Origin: Candidatus Methanoperedenaceae archaeon
GTDB lineage: Archaea > Halobacteriota > Methanosarcinia > Methanosarcinales > Methanoperedenaceae
Direction: 5' to 3'
DNA: 64,000 bases
NCBI GenBank assembly: GCA_963753595.1
Contig: CAVWCX010000036.1
Location: forward strand, 1 to 64,000
Of this stretch, positions 8,020 through 14,544 are shown in pieces; positions within the stretch are counted from its first letter, which is position 1; the number at the start of each line of letters is the position of its first letter. The translations under genes and the position numbers were made by a program. Below the pieces are notes generated by a model. That model was not told the DNA's origin, made no database searches, and saw only the letters and a list, made by a program, of their open reading frames with translations.

Positions 8020-9066
8020 TCATTTTATCGACCCCGCTACTTTGATCATTTCTTCTTTGCTTAACTGGCCGGAAAGCACTAATTCAAGCCCTCCATTGGT
8101 CCATATCAGCGTTTTGGTATCACCAAACCCGGATATTAATTTCCCATCAACGCCGTTGATATTGACCTTTTCGACATCGCCAAAGTCCGGCGAAGGATTT
8201 GATTCATCGCGCAGCATCTCGGAAAGCGAAAGTATCTGAGAACCTTTTTTATATTGCAGTGATACAGTTTCCATCTTTTCAAATTTGAAAACTGTGCTGC
8301 TGTTGAATGTAAAACCCTCTGGCAGATAGGAAGGTGTAAGGACTGTGAAATTGACTTCTTTTCTTGCTTCCTCAAGCGTCATTTGTTTTGGCAGCGCCGG
8401 AAGGTCTCTTGTTACAACCTTTGCGTCCTCAGGCACCTTGAACTCGAATTCACTGTCGGGTATTCCGGTGTTGAACTTTATGTCGCGATACTCTATTGAA
8501 GTCATGAGCTTATCATTTTTATCAAACACCTCTATTTTGAGAGGCATCCAGTTTTCACTGTCCACCAGCATATTATAATGCATGCCCATCATGCTGCCGT
8601 TCTTTGGCGATGCTTTTATATTATATACACTTCTTTCTTCAAATTTTTCTGTGCCCTGGTAAGATATGTCAGTCTGATTCAGGAGCTCCTTAATAAATTG
8701 CGTGTAATCCTGCTCAGGAGGAGTGGCAATTTCAGGCATATCCATCTTGGTCACCTCATTTTTCTCTGGGTCAGAACTCCATATAGTCTTGCCGTCATTG
8801 ACCATAACCCGACCAGCCATTTCGGCAGGCTCAAGATACTCAATCCTGCTCTTATCAGGCATCTTGTTCATCATTTTTGCTTTTACCATTTCATCTTTCC
8901 CACCATATGATGATGAGACTACCATCGTGGCTGAATAGTCTTTGATACTATCCTGTTTTTCTTTCATTTTCTGTGCTATCTGTTCCGCAGACATGTTTGC
9001 AGTACATCCCGATATAAGGGATATTACAATGACTGCGAGCAGAACTATTCCTGTTCTTTTAATCAT
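8020..9066 (-). CDS. Lipoprotein with LolA-like fold and C-terminal DUF4367-like domain
   Basis: Lipobox LISGC; 'KMPDKSRIEY..P....G.VMVNDGKTIW', 'FNTGIPDSEFEFKVP'; 'PSYLPEGF...INGVDG...LSKEEMIKVAGSI'. Confidence 0.8.
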   Translation of the reverse strand: MIKRTGIVLLAVIVISLISGCTANMSAEQIAQKMKEKQDSIKDYSATMVVSSSYGGKDEMVKAKMMNKMPDKSRIEYLEPAEMAGRVMVNDGKTIWSSDPEKNEVTKMDMPEIATPPEQDYTQFIKELLNQTDISYQGTEKFEERSVYNIKASPKNGSMMGMHYNMLVDSENWMPLKIEVFDKNDKLMTSIEYRDIKFNTGIPDSEFEFKVPEDAKVVTRDLPALPKQMTLEEARKEVNFTVLTPSYLPEGFTFNSSTVFKFEKMETVSLQYKKGSQILSLSEMLRDESNPSPDFGDVEKVNINGVDGKLISGFGDTKTLIWTNGGLELVLSGQLSKEEMIKVAGSIK

Positions 9067-9147: not shown

Positions 9148-9876
9148 TCATTCCTGATCACCATAATTTCTTGTTCTAACCTTCTCTATCAGATCAGCAA
9201 TTTGCCCGGCATTAATTGTGTGTATCGTCATTTTATTAACGGACGGGTGCGGCAAAAACCGTATCTGGATATTGAACACGGACTTTGACATTGAGTACAT
9301 CTGATAACCAAAGCCAAAACTAACAATTATCCACATCAGGCTCCCAATGATTTTTACCCGGGGCGCCCCATCCATTAATTGCAAAAAAAACATAAAAAGC
9401 CACAGTATCCCTAAAAGAAAAAGAAAGTAGCAGGCTAATCGTGAAACTTTATTTTTTCGTACTTCCACTGAACCCACCGAGGTCAAAGCGTGTGTTGTCG
9501 AACCCATAAAAGGGCTGAGTATAGTCTTTACCCTGATGCTTCTGTCGCTAATTTCAATTCCTGCTTTTGAAACAATGAGTTGGAGCAACACCACGGAAAG
9601 TAATATCAGATAAACTGAATATGATTCAAAAAAGGAACTGAACCTGAGGAAATAAAAGAGAATTAAGATCAATATTGTTGATACACCAATCACAGTCTCT
9701 TTTGTTATTCCCATAAAATAGGCATCTTTCAGCATAATCGGACTGAATAATGGCGGCTTTGAATAGAAATCCATTTCCGGGATTTCGATCTCTCTTTGCA
9801 TGGTGATTTTCCTATCCATGTTCGCATTCGGGCACCAGCCCATCATTTTTCTAATATTCTCGATAAATGCGGTCAT
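9148..9876 (-). CDS. DUF1673-like membrane protein 7 (GWCP tag)
   Basis: N-terminus MTAFIENIRKMMGWCPN; ~4 TM. Confidence 0.85.
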   Translation of the reverse strand: MTAFIENIRKMMGWCPNANMDRKITMQREIEIPEMDFYSKPPLFSPIMLKDAYFMGITKETVIGVSTILILILFYFLRFSSFFESYSVYLILLSVVLLQLIVSKAGIEISDRSIRVKTILSPFMGSTTHALTSVGSVEVRKNKVSRLACYFLFLLGILWLFMFFLQLMDGAPRVKIIGSLMWIIVSFGFGYQMYSMSKSVFNIQIRFLPHPSVNKMTIHTINAGQIADLIEKVRTRNYGDQE

Positions 9877-10571
9877 TCCTTCCTCCTTTCACAACCCGGC
9901 ATACCCGGAATAATATCTTTCAATTTCAAAAAGTCATGCTCATTGCGAGGATAAAGCAAGATGTAGCTTCCACCAGCATTCATTCTAATCATATACGGAT
10001 AATTCGATATGCGGATCGCGGCATATAATGTATATGCAAAGCAAAAAATTGCAATAAGGAACAATATATTCATGACAGAGTCTGGCATGGCAACCGCAAA
10101 ATAAATCGATAGCAATATCATCATTACTAATGATGCCAGACTATTCCGCTTATGCCTGTTTCCATAGTTTTCAAATATTTCTATGCTTTTGATGCTATTT
10201 TTAGGAATTACGGTGTCACCTAAAATCGGCGTGGTGATTTTCAATGTTTCACTGCCAATAGATAATTTTGTATGGAAAAAAACGATAAGCAAAGCAATCA
10301 GGATAGAAGACATAGGTATAAAATACCTATATGTACCTGTCCATGAGCTGCCGATTATAATTAAACCCGCAAAACCCAGAATAACAGCCCAGACGCGCCA
10401 GTCAAACATTTGCAGCGGCACATCCATATCCCCAGGAATGGAATTATCATCGTTATGGGTGTTACTGCTATTGGCATAGTCTGAAATGAACAGATTTTCA
10501 GTCCTGTAGACAAAATTTTCATGCGGGCACCAGCCCATGATTTTCCGGATATTTTCTGTGAAAGCTGTCAT
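9873..10571 (-). CDS. DUF1673-like membrane protein 6 (GWCP tag)
   Basis: MTAFTENIRKIMGWCPH; DVPLQMFDWR and LYPRNE motifs shared with members 2 and 4. Confidence 0.85.
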   Translation of the reverse strand: MTAFTENIRKIMGWCPHENFVYRTENLFISDYANSSNTHNDDNSIPGDMDVPLQMFDWRVWAVILGFAGLIIIGSSWTGTYRYFIPMSSILIALLIVFFHTKLSIGSETLKITTPILGDTVIPKNSIKSIEIFENYGNRHKRNSLASLVMMILLSIYFAVAMPDSVMNILFLIAIFCFAYTLYAAIRISNYPYMIRMNAGGSYILLYPRNEHDFLKLKDIIPGMPGCERRKE

Positions 10572-11287
10572 TGGACCACTTCTAATTTACTTTCCAGTTC
10601 CTTTGGATTATTTGTATAGAATGTAATTTCACGATTTTTTGTCATTATTTTGAGGACAGCAGCGTTGTATGATCTGACCAGATAATTGTAGAATATCACA
10701 GCAACAAGAATAGTGGCAATGGGGATGGAATAAGCAGTAATGAATTTCACTATCACAGGAGCAGAATTTGCAGCATTATGGTCTAGACTGGTTATATTTT
10801 TTCCTATTGAAAATAATAGTCCAACAAGCGCAAAGGGATATAAAATCCATCTAAACCTGTAATTAGGATTCTTTATGATATTGATTGATACAATGCTTTC
10901 TTTTTGTATCAAGACAGACTTTAGCAGAGGCCGGTGGATAATAATACTGTGAGGTGTAAGCTCCACGGTTGTTTTATTCTGAATAAGTAAAATCAAAAAG
11001 GCAAAATAAAATATTGAAATTGCGATTATATCAATTGCATGGTAATTGATGTTGATGAGCATTAATAAAAATGCAGTTATCGAAGCGGGCAATATGATAC
11101 TTGTTATACCAGCATCACGGGAACTATCTACAAGAATTTTTATCCGGTCATGCTCTGGTGCCTTATTTTGTGAATAAATGGCATTCATGTTCGTCTTGTT
11201 TATATTACCCGGGTGCATAAACTCAAAATCTTTTTGGGGGCACCAACCCATTACTCTTCTGATATTTTCTGTAAAATTGCCTATCAT
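10568..11287 (-). CDS. DUF1673-like membrane protein 5 (GWCP tag)
   Basis: MIGNFTENIRRVMGWCPQ; ~4 TM. Confidence 0.85.
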   Translation of the reverse strand: MIGNFTENIRRVMGWCPQKDFEFMHPGNINKTNMNAIYSQNKAPEHDRIKILVDSSRDAGITSIILPASITAFLLMLININYHAIDIIAISIFYFAFLILLIQNKTTVELTPHSIIIHRPLLKSVLIQKESIVSINIIKNPNYRFRWILYPFALVGLLFSIGKNITSLDHNAANSAPVIVKFITAYSIPIATILVAVIFYNYLVRSYNAAVLKIMTKNREITFYTNNPKELESKLEVVQ

Positions 11288-11994
11288 CTCTCCAATTCCC
11301 CCTTCAGAATATTAAACTCAGATTCATTTCTTGGGTAAAGCGTGACGTTGTTCGCAGTTTCTATCTTGATGGCTTTTGGATAACGAGACCTGCGAATATT
11401 TCTTTGAAGGGACGATATGAGTAAAAAAATCAAAAAAACAGGCATAACAAAACTAAATATCATATCTTCCAGAGGTGTAGAACGTATCATCTTGCGGTAC
11501 AAAGTCAGAGCCTGCAGAAAAACGAACAGCATGATAAAGATAATTAAGAAAAAATTCATCCATCTATGTTTGTAAATAGAATTGTCGATAATTTTTATGC
11601 AATTAATTTCATGTTTTGGGATATTGACAGGTTTGAGGAAGGGCTTAAGTATCTGCACCTTTTCAGGGTCAATCGAAATTTTGATCCGGTCAATGCTGAT
11701 AATTAGCAAAATAAAGATCATGTAAACAAGTATAATCCCGGGAAATCCATTAAATAAATCAACGAATATTAAAATAAAACCAGAAATACCTAAAATTAAT
11801 GCAATTGAAAAAATGCGCCAGTCTAACATCTGGATCGGTACATCCATGTTCTTAACAGGGTAATAATTGGACTTTCTGTTATCGTTATGGGCATAGTCTA
11901 TATTATACACATCTTTAACTGCGGAAAAATCTGTTTCCTGCGGGCACCAGCCCATCATTTTCCTGACATTTTCGATTAAAGTAGTCATTTGCAT
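11284..11994 (-). CDS. DUF1673-like membrane protein 4 (GWCP tag)
   Basis: IENVRKMMGWCPQ; ends LYPRNESEFNILKGELER. Confidence 0.85.
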   Translation of the reverse strand: MQMTTLIENVRKMMGWCPQETDFSAVKDVYNIDYAHNDNRKSNYYPVKNMDVPIQMLDWRIFSIALILGISGFILIFVDLFNGFPGIILVYMIFILLIISIDRIKISIDPEKVQILKPFLKPVNIPKHEINCIKIIDNSIYKHRWMNFFLIIFIMLFVFLQALTLYRKMIRSTPLEDMIFSFVMPVFLIFLLISSLQRNIRRSRYPKAIKIETANNVTLYPRNESEFNILKGELER

Positions 11995-11999
11995 ATCCT

Positions 12000-12611
12000 C
12001 TATCTGCCACCTGCTTCAATGTCAATCGCGTAAAAAGATGTTTTTTCCACGATCAGGGTCTTCCTGTTTTTCCGTTCCCAGCAGACCACCTCAAGGTATT
12101 GTGTCCAGACAAACAAACTGAAACCTGAAAGAGTGGCGTAAATACCACTTATGCGGATATCGGTCTTTGCGGCGATGAAGCCGACAATTATCATTACTAC
12201 TATTATAAACCCAAATATTATCAGATAGTTCATGATCTTCTTTTTTCTTGTGACCCGGACTTTTTTGAATTCACCTACAGCCGCTTTGTTCAGCCTGCGC
12301 CATTCTGTTATTCCTGTAAATATGCTGACTATTAAACCATAGATTATGCCTGCCAGGAAATTATCAGGATTATATCGTCCATATGAAATGTAAAAATTCA
12401 TTGCCACTAACGTAAGGATAACTGCGTTCAGTAAAACCCTGTTGCGCCATTTGTTCCACCATCTTGCAGTAGCGTGAGTTAATTCCCCATCACTACCAGG
12501 CGCATTTACCATCATGTCATCGAACTGCACGGATTTTCTTGTATCTATCGTGCTTGCATTCGGGCACCAGCCCATCAATTTCCTGATATTCTCAACAAAA
12601 GTGACCTTCAT
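12000..12611 (-). CDS. DUF1673-like membrane protein 3 (GWCP tag)
   Basis: VENIRKLMGWCPN; WWNKWRNRVLL; C-terminal WERKNRKTL. Confidence 0.88.
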   Translation of the reverse strand: MKVTFVENIRKLMGWCPNASTIDTRKSVQFDDMMVNAPGSDGELTHATARWWNKWRNRVLLNAVILTLVAMNFYISYGRYNPDNFLAGIIYGLIVSIFTGITEWRRLNKAAVGEFKKVRVTRKKKIMNYLIIFGFIIVVMIIVGFIAAKTDIRISGIYATLSGFSLFVWTQYLEVVCWERKNRKTLIVEKTSFYAIDIEAGGR

Positions 12612-13333
12612 CTCTCTAATTCTCCTTTCAGAATATTAAACTCAGATTCATTTCCTGGGTAGAGCGTGATGTTCTTTGTAGCAGTATCCAGCCGGATGGT
12701 TTTTGGATACCGGGATCTGCGATTGCCACTATAGAACATTGATATAAATAAAAAAAATACGAACATCGAATTGGCAATATGTAATACTGCTTCCTCCATG
12801 TCAGCGGAACGTATTATCTGGTCATGTAAACTCAGGATCTGGAAAAACCCGAGTATTAAAATAAGGATAATTAAAACCAGATTGATCCGCCTGTATTTGT
12901 AGAGAACATTGTCAATTGTTTTTATATCAGTTATATCGTGTTTCAGGATATTGATGGATTCGAAGAAAGAAGTCTTTATCACCAGCTTTTTCGGGTCAAT
13001 CGACACTTTGTTCTTATCGGATAGATTAAAAAAAGCAATAAAAGTAAAATAAAGCAATATTATGCCAAAATAACCTGCAGCCGTTCTATTTAAATAATTT
13101 ACGAAAATTAAAATGAAATAAAAGAAACCAAGAGCTAATATAATTGCAAACTTGCGCCAGTCAAATAAATCAAGAGGTAAATTTACATTATTTGCTGTTC
13201 CACCATTAGCTCTTGCTTGATTTTTATTGGAATTGCAAATCTTGCCAGTTTCATGAACCTGCACGAACATTCTCTCCTTTAATGGGCACCAGCTTATCGT
13301 TTTTCTCATTACTTCGGTCAAGTTTATCATCAT
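12608..13333 (-). CDS. DUF1673-like membrane protein 2 (variant SWCP tag)
   Basis: TEVMRKTISWCPL; ends LYPGNESEFNILKGELER. Confidence 0.85.
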   Translation of the reverse strand: MMINLTEVMRKTISWCPLKERMFVQVHETGKICNSNKNQARANGGTANNVNLPLDLFDWRKFAIILALGFFYFILIFVNYLNRTAAGYFGIILLYFTFIAFFNLSDKNKVSIDPKKLVIKTSFFESINILKHDITDIKTIDNVLYKYRRINLVLIILILILGFFQILSLHDQIIRSADMEEAVLHIANSMFVFFLFISMFYSGNRRSRYPKTIRLDTATKNITLYPGNESEFNILKGELER

Positions 13334-13363
13334 ACTAATTTCCTTACCAGTTCAATATCAAAA

Positions 13364-14071
13364 TCATAAGATGAAGCTCCGGAAAATCCGTGCAATGGAT
13401 ATGAATTTTAATGCCAGGGGGAGTCCGGCCACGATTGCCGATTTAATAGGTGTGAGCCTGTGGATGGTTTGTATACCGAAAAAAAGGATTATTGAACTCA
13501 GTGCGTACATAATTATTGTGATTGGGATTGAAAATAATATATAGTGATTACTATAGAGTTCCCTGTAGTTTATTGGATTTCCTGGTGACAATGTTATTGT
13601 CATGGGTTCTAACATAAAAAGCAATGCAAGGCTGATGAGGCTTTCTAAAATCAAAGGAATAGAGCTATAACCAACGATTGTCATCATCCGGGGATAAAAT
13701 TTGCCTTTCCCACCTAAAACCTTTGAAAGAATATGAAGTATTCCTGAGACGATTAGCCATAAAAGGAAAAAAGCTATTAATGCACCAACAAAACTGGTTG
13801 TCCAATCTATCGACATGAAGAACTCTTTTTCAGAATTCCTCTTAGCTGTCAGATATACTCCAAATGCGTTCAAAACTGCATATATACCCACGATCATTAC
13901 AGCCTTCTTGAATGTAGACTGCTCTACTATGCTTTTTATTGCACCGCTAACACCGCCGGAGATGCCTGGAGATATATTATTGAATTGCACATAGTTTCTT
14001 GTCTTGAGTACGCCTGTATTCGGGCACCAGCCCATCATTTTCCGTATGGTTTCCATTAAATTTACCGTCAA
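13364..14071 (-). CDS. DUF1673-like tag fused to a Yip1-domain membrane protein (member 1)
   Basis: METIRKMMGWCPN followed by Yip1-like 'WLIVSGILHILSKVLGGKGKF...VGYSSIP...GIQTIHRLTPIKSAI'. Confidence 0.8.
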   Translation of the reverse strand: MTVNLMETIRKMMGWCPNTGVLKTRNYVQFNNISPGISGGVSGAIKSIVEQSTFKKAVMIVGIYAVLNAFGVYLTAKRNSEKEFFMSIDWTTSFVGALIAFFLLWLIVSGILHILSKVLGGKGKFYPRMMTIVGYSSIPLILESLISLALLFMLEPMTITLSPGNPINYRELYSNHYILFSIPITIIMYALSSIILFFGIQTIHRLTPIKSAIVAGLPLALKFISIARIFRSFIL

Positions 14072-14514
14072 GCTAATCCCCTTAACTTCTCAAAAAGCTC
14101 CTCAGCCAGCTTCGTGGGATCATCAGTTTTCTCAAGCCTGAGCTTCATCTCATCCGCAAAATCCCACAGCAATTCAACGCATTGTGTATATCTATTACAC
14201 GCATTGCAATTCCCTTCATGCTCGTACCATACCTGGATCCCGTGCTTTGCAGATACGAAAATTATGGCGCTGGCATTAAAAGGCACAGAATGCCCGAACA
14301 AAATGCCTCGCTCCATGTTTATTTTTTCTACCTCTATCTGGTTTGCGCGCGCCATCTCAATGAGCGTATTTTCTATTCTTTCATCCATCGTGAGGAGCGC
14401 CTTTGAAACAGCCTGTTTGGAAATATTGAACAGGCGCGCTATGTCTATGCTGATAATACCATTGCGCCTGAGCCTCCAGAACTCAAACTGCCTGTCATTT
14501 AAAGGAAGGAACAT
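14068..14514 (-). CDS. HTH transcriptional regulator with C-terminal His/Cys metal-binding motif
   Basis: HTH 'SIDIARLFNISKQAVSKAL'; 'WYEHEGNCNACNRYTQC' (H-x3-C-x2-C-x5-C). Confidence 0.85.
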   Translation of the reverse strand: MFLPLNDRQFEFWRLRRNGIISIDIARLFNISKQAVSKALLTMDERIENTLIEMARANQIEVEKINMERGILFGHSVPFNASAIIFVSAKHGIQVWYEHEGNCNACNRYTQCVELLWDFADEMKLRLEKTDDPTKLAEELFEKLRGLA

Positions 14515-14516
14515 GA

Positions 14517-14544
14517 GTCAATATATGCGTATTGACAATATAAA
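14517..14544 (-). promoter_or_regulatory. TATA box plus palindromic operator of the GWCP operon (leaderless transcript)
   Basis: GTCAATA-N6-TATTGAC at 14517-14536 next to the ATG (14514); minus-strand TTTATAT at 14544-14538, ~27 nt upstream of the ATG. Confidence 0.7.

Follow-up and report, generated by a model that had tools for sequence, protein, structure and literature searches.

What joins seven membrane proteins with differing bodies into one operon? The question is posed by a locus on the minus strand of the window studied here, that is, the whole 64,000-nucleotide (nt) stretch of Candidatus Methanoperedenaceae archaeon DNA from assembly GCA_963753595.1 (contig CAVWCX010000036.1, positions 1 to 64,000). 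Eight consecutive minus-strand open reading frames (ORFs) run there from 14514 down to 9148, namely a gene for a regulator of 148 amino acids (aa) and seven genes for proteins of 203-242 aa, all of which carry near their N-terminus a short peptide ending in W-C-P that we call the tag. As far as sequence comparison can tell, this is a conserved, self-contained module of methanogenic and methanotrophic archaea, present order-wide in the Methanosarcinales and in further families of the phylum Halobacteriota. We tentatively suggest, at somewhat less than an even chance, that the tag may serve as a universal docking handle, possibly involving thiol or metal chemistry, in an envelope switch with many sensors and one regulator that was duplicated into two orthogonal versions, A and B.

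The initial annotation of this locus had described seven minus-strand genes with five of the seven junctions overlapping by 4 nt, and the ORF coordinates bear this out: stop and start codons overlap at 14068-14071, 12608-12611, 11284-11287, 10568-10571 and 9873-9876, and at the two remaining junctions the genes lie 30 nt and 5 nt apart. The features referred to below are as follows.

14537-14544, minus strand: TATA-like promoter element of the operon, its centre some 26-27 nt ahead of the regulator ATG; kept in 61 related loci.
14517-14536, no strand: putative operator, a palindrome of 20 bp situated after the TATA box and ahead of the start codon; presumed binding site, judging from the sequence.
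14068-14514, minus strand: regulator, 148 aa, with a helix-turn-helix (HTH) domain and a Cys3His domain; first gene of the array.
14344-14514, minus strand: regulator residues 1-57, a sigma-70-region-4/LuxR-type HTH with a long helix, according to an AlphaFold2 (AF2) model and its structural match.
14071-14343, minus strand: regulator residues 58-148, a four-strand, two-helix domain in the AF2 model.
14179-14220, minus strand: regulator ligands H99, C103, C106 and C112, from the alignment of homologues.
13364-14071, minus strand: tagged membrane protein 1 with a Yip1-domain body; tag in codons 1-17 (14021-14071); 4-nt overlap with the regulator stop codon.
12608-13333, minus strand: tagged membrane protein 2 with the S-W-C-P variant of the tag (13283-13333); body cluster 1, without a Pfam match.
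12000-12611, minus strand: tagged membrane protein 3 with a canonical DUF1673 body (PF07895, 108 bits); tag at 12561-12611; body cluster 0.
11284-11994, minus strand: tagged membrane protein 4; tag at 11941-11994; body cluster 1.
10568-11287, minus strand: tagged membrane protein 5; tag at 11237-11287; body cluster 1; PF07895, 30.7 bits.
9873-10571, minus strand: tagged membrane protein 6; tag at 10524-10571; body cluster 1.
9148-9876, minus strand: tagged membrane protein 7, last gene of the array; tag at 9829-9876; body cluster 5.

The first tagged gene has two possible starts, TTG at 14071, which gives the 4-nt overlap and resembles its orthologues, or ATG at 14056. The regulator gene is single-copy in the source genome, and none of the eight window proteins matched the anti-phage models of PADLOC-DB at E<=0.01.

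The tag consensus E-x-[IVM]-R-[KR]-x-x-[GS]-W-C-P lies within the first 18 residues of all seven membrane proteins, and every string quoted for it in the initial annotation (ETIRKMMGWCP, EVMRKTISWCP, ENIRKLMGWCP, ENVRKMMGWCP, ENIRRVMGWCP, ENIRKIMGWCP and ENIRKMMGWCP) is present in the translated ORFs. Six of the seven genes end it with M-G-W-C-P, the motif of the DUF1673 family (arCOG06827), and one with I-S-W-C-P. Near ORF starts, the pattern R[KR]xxxWCP occurs seven times in the 2.89-megabase, 37-contig assembly, and all seven occurrences are these genes. Synonymous codons vary inside the window tags (Arg CGG/AGA/AGG, Ile ATA/ATC/ATT, Gly GGC/GGT, Pro CCG/CCA/CCC), and over the set of genomes each of the four Gly codons and either Cys codon is found; selection therefore acts on the peptide and not on the DNA. 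The possibility that the conserved tag DNA is itself an operator-like element was ruled out, since its third codon positions vary and the true palindrome lies upstream.

Over 127 tags (one mismatch allowed) the Cys is kept in 127, Trp and Pro in 126 each and Gly in 124, and the tag always sits 9-18 residues from the start, while the linkers and bodies that follow are not conserved, with a mean column identity of 33%. The first membrane helix of tagged proteins starts at a median of residue 60, and the K/R bias of 117 proteins, a crude estimate of topology, places the N-terminus inside in 84, outside in 30 and leaves 3 tied. Both MOP (multidrug/oligosaccharidyl-lipid/polysaccharide) flippases and Yip1 proteins have cytoplasmic N-termini; because the K/R bias favours an inside N-terminus and the tag heads members of both families, it would face the cytoplasm. 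We hold it very probable that the tag functions as a peptide on the cytoplasmic side and is peculiar to this system. A lipobox or signal-peptide reading was ruled out: a lipobox consists of a hydrophobic signal core followed by [LVI][ASTVI][GAS]-C, whereas the residues before the tag Cys are charged or amphipathic, form no hydrophobic core and place Trp (type A) or Leu (type B) at position -1.

Where, then, does the tag occur? The initial annotation had named a lack of linkage between tag genes and the regulator family as grounds for rejecting its proposal; the linkage proved near-perfect within the order and extends beyond it. Our order-wide survey covered 284 genomes, many of them related and hence non-independent, whereby the counts overstate their statistical weight; the regulator was found in 120, PF07895 in 111 and the tag, searched as a DNA pattern, in 130 of them. 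Regulator and tag pattern occur together in 113 genomes, the tag alone in 17 (16 of these with a single match), the regulator alone in 7 and neither in 147. Altogether 486 of the 506 tag matches fall in regulator-positive genomes, and most genomes give no match to a reversed-pattern control. For regulator and PF07895 the corresponding numbers are 102 genomes with both, 18 with the regulator only, 9 with PF07895 only and 155 with neither. In five complete genomes all 50 tag matches (13, 12, 13, 8 and 4) belong to one same-strand array directly behind the regulator, and the reversed pattern matches there once. The gene following the regulator is tagged at 28 of the 30 loci from the same genus, at 19 of the 20 from other families and behind 9 of 10 additional regulators from outside the order. 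Of 401 genomes sampled elsewhere in the phylum, 58 have the regulator, again with tagged genes behind it, and the pattern holds in every family examined. The module forms one locus per genome, comprising 4-14 genes in Methanosarcina-size genomes and anaerobic methane oxidisers.

The membrane bodies behind the tag are diverse. That the tag matches DUF1673, as first proposed, holds insofar as the MGWCP-type motif is present and two window genes exceed the PF07895 cut-off of 30.4 bits (12000-12611 with 108 bits and 10568-11287 with 30.7 bits), but the Pfam model spans tag plus body and not the tag alone, and five of the seven genes stay below the cut-off, with 27.1 bits for 13364-14071, 19.0, 17.2 and 14.0 bits for three others and no match for 12608-13333. 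When the tag was removed from 120 tagged ORFs of the window and related loci and the bodies were grouped by BLAST links, 11 unlinked clusters were obtained, cluster 0 containing 47 of the 120. The window's seven bodies occupy four of these clusters, with four of the seven genes in cluster 1; the earlier count of at least three unrelated body types is corrected by BLAST from three to four. The product of 13364-14071 matches Yip1 (PF04893) with 64.7 bits over residues 59-225 (cut-off 28.6) and weakly resembles YknW (E 0.0007), and no Pfam match to the SdpI family (PF13630) was found among the seven window proteins. Relatives carry the tag on a MOP flippase of 538 aa (Polysacc_synt_3, 74 bits), on an SdpI+DUF1648 protein (SdpI family at locus L065, 56.9 bits, cut-off 28.2), on a DUF6159 protein and on proteins of about 420 aa with sub-threshold similarity to the AglB core. 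When the tags are divided into subtypes by their first residues, these prove to be mixed over the body clusters, the 'MTINV' subtype alone occurring on seven of them, and this spread argues that the tag behaves as a portable module. The earlier suggestion that it had been grafted onto different membrane bodies is therefore upheld, the same tag being found on at least 11 BLAST-unlinked clusters including Yip1, SdpI+DUF1648, DUF6159, MOP flippase and STT3-like proteins. A variant ending in G-W-C-Q is fused to a 591-aa STT3-like protein at locus L096 (G088:C10, 3374-5149), and at locus L019 an untagged STT3 homologue (50 bits) follows the regulator.

Such arrays could also owe their common N-terminus to nothing more than recent events of tandem duplication or gene conversion, without any function of its own, and the genes are indeed tandem paralogues, four of the seven in the window sharing one body cluster. 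The tag is, however, kept across the order and in other families while linkers and bodies have diverged past recognition by BLAST, its synonymous sites vary, and it heads unrelated Pfam families, so that we find this explanation scarcely credible; a pure duplication artefact was rejected on the conservation of the tag as against the divergence of the bodies. A second possibility places the action of the tag at the nascent chain or the ribosome, where it would pace or couple translation and membrane insertion along a polycistron of overlapping genes and play no role in the mature protein. Its near-fixed distance from the start codon (9-18 residues), the conserved 4-nt stop/start overlaps and conservation at the protein level with a Trp-Cys-Pro core would all suit such a role, and arrest peptides containing Pro and Trp are known. 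The tag is nevertheless retained on single, non-arrayed genes such as the flippase gene of locus L049 and the 420-aa genes of family f5, and its confinement to the operons of this particular regulator would be left unexplained; we consider a nascent-chain function very unlikely.

The operon has a conserved promoter and a putative operator. Alignment upstream of the regulator genes revealed a 20-bp palindrome of the form GT[CA]AA[CT]-N8-[AG]TT[GT]AC directly after the TATA-like box; this palindrome stops 2 nt short of the regulator ATG in 58 loci and 3 nt short of it in 3 loci (61/61). It is present at all 82 regulators detected by pattern and at 10 further regulators that the pattern had missed. 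The degenerate palindrome matches three times in the source genome, where about 5 matches are expected from composition, and 110 times in 691 kilobases of collected loci, where about 1 is expected according to an estimate scaled from the source-genome composition, a roughly 90-fold excess; as the pattern is not rare in itself, the signal lies in the fixed geometry and in the excess within regulator loci. In archaea, the usual distance from the TATA box to the start of transcription is about the 26-27 nt that separate this box from the regulator ATG, and a leaderless mRNA is therefore predicted. Archaeal repressor operators typically lie between the TATA box and the transcription start, and the arrangement of TATA box and palindrome fits a leaderless, autoregulated gene. 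We infer from this conserved geometry that the regulator binds the palindrome at 14517-14536, and consider it likely that it is a DNA-binding autoregulator of the polycistron. The conservation of promoter and operator is new in this analysis.

Second copies of the promoter were also encountered. At L012 (1058-1077) and L014 (1057-1076), a further TATA box, palindrome and ATG lie 443 nt upstream of the regulator and head only a 17- or 34-codon remnant with a regulator-like beginning, apparently a decayed duplicate. In two Methanosarcina-size genomes (L049, 690-709; L050, 14715-14734), a further palindrome resembling the operator, again accompanied by a TATA box, is located about 225 nt upstream of an ATP-binding cassette (ABC) transporter gene (ABC_tran, 112.8 bits), which precedes a second regulator copy and the tagged flippase.

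What kind of protein is the regulator? Its homologues are 55-93% identical across the order and are annotated as 'hypothetical protein' in the source records. The AF2 model (predicted local distance difference test score, pLDDT, of 89.8) comprises helices at residues 8-17, 22-28 and 33-57, followed by four strands and two helices. As the initial annotation had it, the first gene of the operon encodes an HTH protein with an H-x3-C-x2-C-x5-C motif; the HTH fold was matched in the model, and H99-x3-C103-x2-C106-x5-C112 is invariant in 28 of 28 aligned homologues. Over about 50 residues, the N-terminal domain superimposes with Z scores of 7.9 on 1rp3, 7.8 on 8jzt and 7.2 on both 6jhe and 5wuq, and on the evidence of the model it is a sigma-70 region 4/LuxR-type HTH at the fold level. 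Pfam returned no sigma-70 region 4/LuxR-type family for the regulator, only MarR_2 at E 0.055, and no ArsR-type family was among its Pfam or NCBIfam matches, the fold being of the sigma-4 type. Residues 5-98 match the Tfx family TIGR00721 with 16.1 bits (E 0.0081), below the cut-off of 60.25.

The closest solved relative of the regulator is EnfR (TON_1525, Protein Data Bank (PDB) entry 8hno), a dimeric repressor of the Tfx family described as binding a promoter pseudo-palindrome (PMC10570040). EnfR was the only match when the PDB was searched with the sequence profile of the regulator (E 0.16). Residues 1-52 superimpose on it with Z 7.9 and a root-mean-square deviation of 1.7, and a whole-chain Foldseek comparison with 8hno gave a template-modelling score of 0.35, a probability of 0.87 and an E-value of 0.11. 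Both proteins appear to share in outline an N-terminal sigma-70-region-4-like HTH (the 'flag' of EnfR), a long 'stem' helix and a C-terminal alpha+beta head (its 'note-head'). They differ in that the window regulator lies far below the family cut-offs and that its Cys3His head matches neither EnfR nor other PDB entries; a structural search with the head domain alone did not return EnfR. Modelled by itself, the C-terminal domain reached a pLDDT of 91.5. Its best PDB match had a Z score of 3.4 and Foldseek found none at E<=0.001, which does not prove a novel fold, and the ESM Atlas held no usable match. A profile of the domain searched against 1.84 billion proteins yielded 95 representatives, nearly all of 145-170 aa with the domain in the same place, and by this measure the Cys3His domain appears to be confined almost entirely to this architecture. 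One regulator homologue (G134:C1:206339-206779) contains a single in-frame TAG, which may mark a pseudogene, or a pyrrolysine or read-through codon in a TAG-decoding lineage.

A second type of regulator, termed B, was found in a family that does not belong to the order, as well as in a single genome of a further family, and at locus L067 it adjoins a type-A system. All 12 type-B regulators have the operator GTAAAT-N8-ATTTAC in place of the type-A form GTCAAC..GTTGAC, and the genes behind all 12 carry a modified tag, M-T-R-x-S-...-x-[GC]-L-C-[RP]-[KR], which reads W-x-G-L-C in nine cases, G-L-C without the Trp in two and C-L-C in one. Among 70 type-A regulators, 59 are followed by GWCP tags, the others by no detected tag and none by a GLC-type tag. 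Of the tag residues, the Cys alone is common to both types. Types A and B are told apart without exception by the following columns of the regulator alignment: S32T, A35G and K/R38Q, which belong to the recognition helix, and T50S, E61Q, I84F/Y, R108E, L115F and F141L. The changes in the recognition helix fit the change of operator. R108E is situated between Cys106 and Cys112, and the type-B tag gains an Arg (10/12) and a Lys/Arg right after the Cys, a charge pattern that a direct contact between tag and regulator would predict, as far as the alignments can indicate. Nine type-B loci (L065, L073, L076-L080, L082 and L083) contain a second promoter built of TATA box, GTAAAT-N8-ATTTAC, 2 nt and ATG, which heads a signal-peptide protein of about 300-600 aa starting with M-S-K-Q-T-S-N-N-P; Pfam gave nothing informative on this secreted protein, only a weak DUF3821. 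The identical geometry at this second promoter independently supports the palindrome as a site of the regulator.

Does the tag touch the regulator at all? The regulator might instead be an operon autorepressor that senses metal, redox state or iron-sulphur clusters through a closed Cys3His site, the tag being a shared signal for sorting, lipid or cofactor modification, degradation or oligomerisation that is read by a host factor encoded elsewhere. H99, C103, C106 and C112 can make a complete site alone, the operator and promoter geometry is explained without any tag, the type-B operator also fronts the untagged secreted protein, and genome G013 contains a tagged array without a regulator. Heme-regulatory motifs contain a Cys-Pro dipeptide, of which the W-C-P end of the tag is reminiscent, a likeness that is weakened by 10 of the 12 type-B tags having Arg in place of Pro. 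Were the tag a general host signal, however, it should turn up on genes elsewhere too, whereas the tags are nearly restricted to the operon of this regulator, with 50/50 matches in complete genomes and 486/506 in regulator-positive genomes; the tag furthermore changes along with the regulator paralogue, and for want of a hydrophobic core and with Trp or Leu before the Cys it is no lipobox. Taken as one, these two suppositions appear rather unlikely to us.

The reading we prefer, in which the tag docks the regulator, would work as follows. A Tfx-like regulator, built of a sigma-4-type HTH, a long helix and a Cys3His head domain peculiar to it, would be made from a leaderless promoter and, probably as a dimer, bind the 20-bp palindrome and thereby autoregulate a polycistron of translationally coupled membrane-protein genes. 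Each membrane protein would carry a cytoplasmic N-terminal basic helix of about 15 residues ending in G-W-C-P, 25-45 residues before its first membrane helix. With the tag as a common handle, the diverse bodies could hold the Cys3His domain of the regulator at the membrane or release it, and the output of the operon would then follow what the bodies sense in the envelope. In its overall logic this would be like the capture of the autorepressor SdpR by SdpI, except that a single portable docking tag would be shared by many interchangeable bodies with sensor or immunity roles. That the tag docks the Cys3His domain is suggested by the exclusive linkage, the joint conservation, the portability, the A/B variants and the SdpI/SdpR precedent, and we would give it a little less than an even chance. 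By analogy, a switch of many sensors and one autorepressor working like SdpI/SdpR falls just short of the halfway mark in our judgement. Thiol or metal exchange involving the tag Cys seems improbable.

Several observations weigh against this proposal. In G013, which is 94% complete, a four-gene tagged array has no regulator upstream (L095, G013:C153, 3693-6433), and no regulator match was found anywhere in that genome; the first gene of this array starts inside the tag itself (M-M-G-W-C-P). Conversely, the regulators of L019, L021, L048 and L081 are not followed by a tagged gene. The regulator of L088 (G489:C3) has Gln in place of the ligand His (W-Y-E-Q-E-G-D-C), with the three Cys kept. The four conserved ligands could give the regulator a site that is closed without the tag Cys, which speaks in particular against the version in which the tag completes the site, and the K/R bias of the 30 proteins mentioned above places their tags outside. 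Type B forms one clade with a support of 100/100; the co-variation of A and B is a single duplication event and could reflect co-descent of whole operons instead of co-adaptation. Finally, all tags are co-transcribed with the regulator, so that unconditional sequestration would be futile and the proposal requires the tag to be masked or exposed conditionally.

How does the module compare with known systems? In Bacillus subtilis, the membrane immunity and signal protein SdpI sequesters the operon's autorepressor SdpR upon binding of an extracellular ligand (PMC2910880). The likeness would lie in an autorepressor gene placed first, with one or more membrane proteins after it in the same operon, and in the proposed derepression by capture at the membrane; moreover, an SdpI-family body is tagged in the relative L065 and the window Yip1 protein is weakly YknW-like. 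Unlike SdpR, the window regulator is not of the ArsR type, and the proposed contact is a portable N-terminal peptide, whereas SdpI uses its own loops; the window system is furthermore archaeal and has many different bodies per regulator. As an analogy, SdpI/SdpR is the better functional counterpart than anti-sigma control, to which the likeness is loose. Zinc-binding anti-sigma (ZAS) proteins contain H-x3-C-x2-C in a helical anti-sigma domain that binds the sigma factor. With the extracytoplasmic function (ECF) sigma/ZAS pairs the module would have in common a sigma-4-type HTH, the H-x3-C-x2-C string and the idea of control by the cytoplasmic N-terminus of a membrane protein. In the window system, however, the motif sits in the DNA-binding protein, where the string (H99, C103, C106) follows a four-strand sheet in a domain without a PDB match; the regulator lacks sigma region 2, and the membrane partner contributes about 15 residues as against an anti-sigma domain of 80-90. 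Archaea are not known to use sigma factors.

The tagged proteins themselves had been noticed before. As seen in the parts of these articles that we consulted, DUF1673/arCOG06827 was listed as an expanded membrane family with an MGWCP motif in one table row in 2014 (PMC4158269), and the family received a one-line mention as a supercluster in 2015 (PMC4390880). The window genes share family and motif with it, one at 108 bits and a second barely over the cut-off; neither a regulator or operator nor the structure of the operon is mentioned in those passages, which are also silent on tags in other Pfam families, on a paralogue variant and on function. A literature search for DUF1673, MGWCP, arCOG06827 and GWCP yielded nothing on a regulator, operator, operon, tag portability or paralogue, and supplementary expression tables, which lay outside this search, may list the genes. 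Family and motif were hence already known, and the regulator, operator, operon layout, tag portability and paralogue are new in that we found nothing on them in print. The layout, a shared tag by which many membrane partners would answer to one autorepressor, is unprecedented, and the regulator domain had no structural relative in our searches.

The module belongs to archaeal 'dark matter' that was previously without a functional lead. A defined operator, a regulator domain without relatives, a peptide with an invariant Cys and a natural pair of orthogonal A and B versions offer handles for the tractable genetics of Methanosarcina. If the tag docks the regulator, it would represent a compact, transplantable wiring of membrane proteins to transcription in archaea, and the fast-evolving bodies (Yip1, SdpI-like and others) would suggest themselves as sensors or immunity proteins for envelope-active agents.

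The next gene downstream of the array, across a gap of 81 nt, is a lipoprotein-like gene of 348 aa at 8020-9066 on the minus strand, whose product matches LolA_like, LolA, MucB_RseB and DUF4367 and may be an envelope partner of the system. Proteins with C-terminal ends resembling that of this product are encoded near the regulator in L021 and L030.

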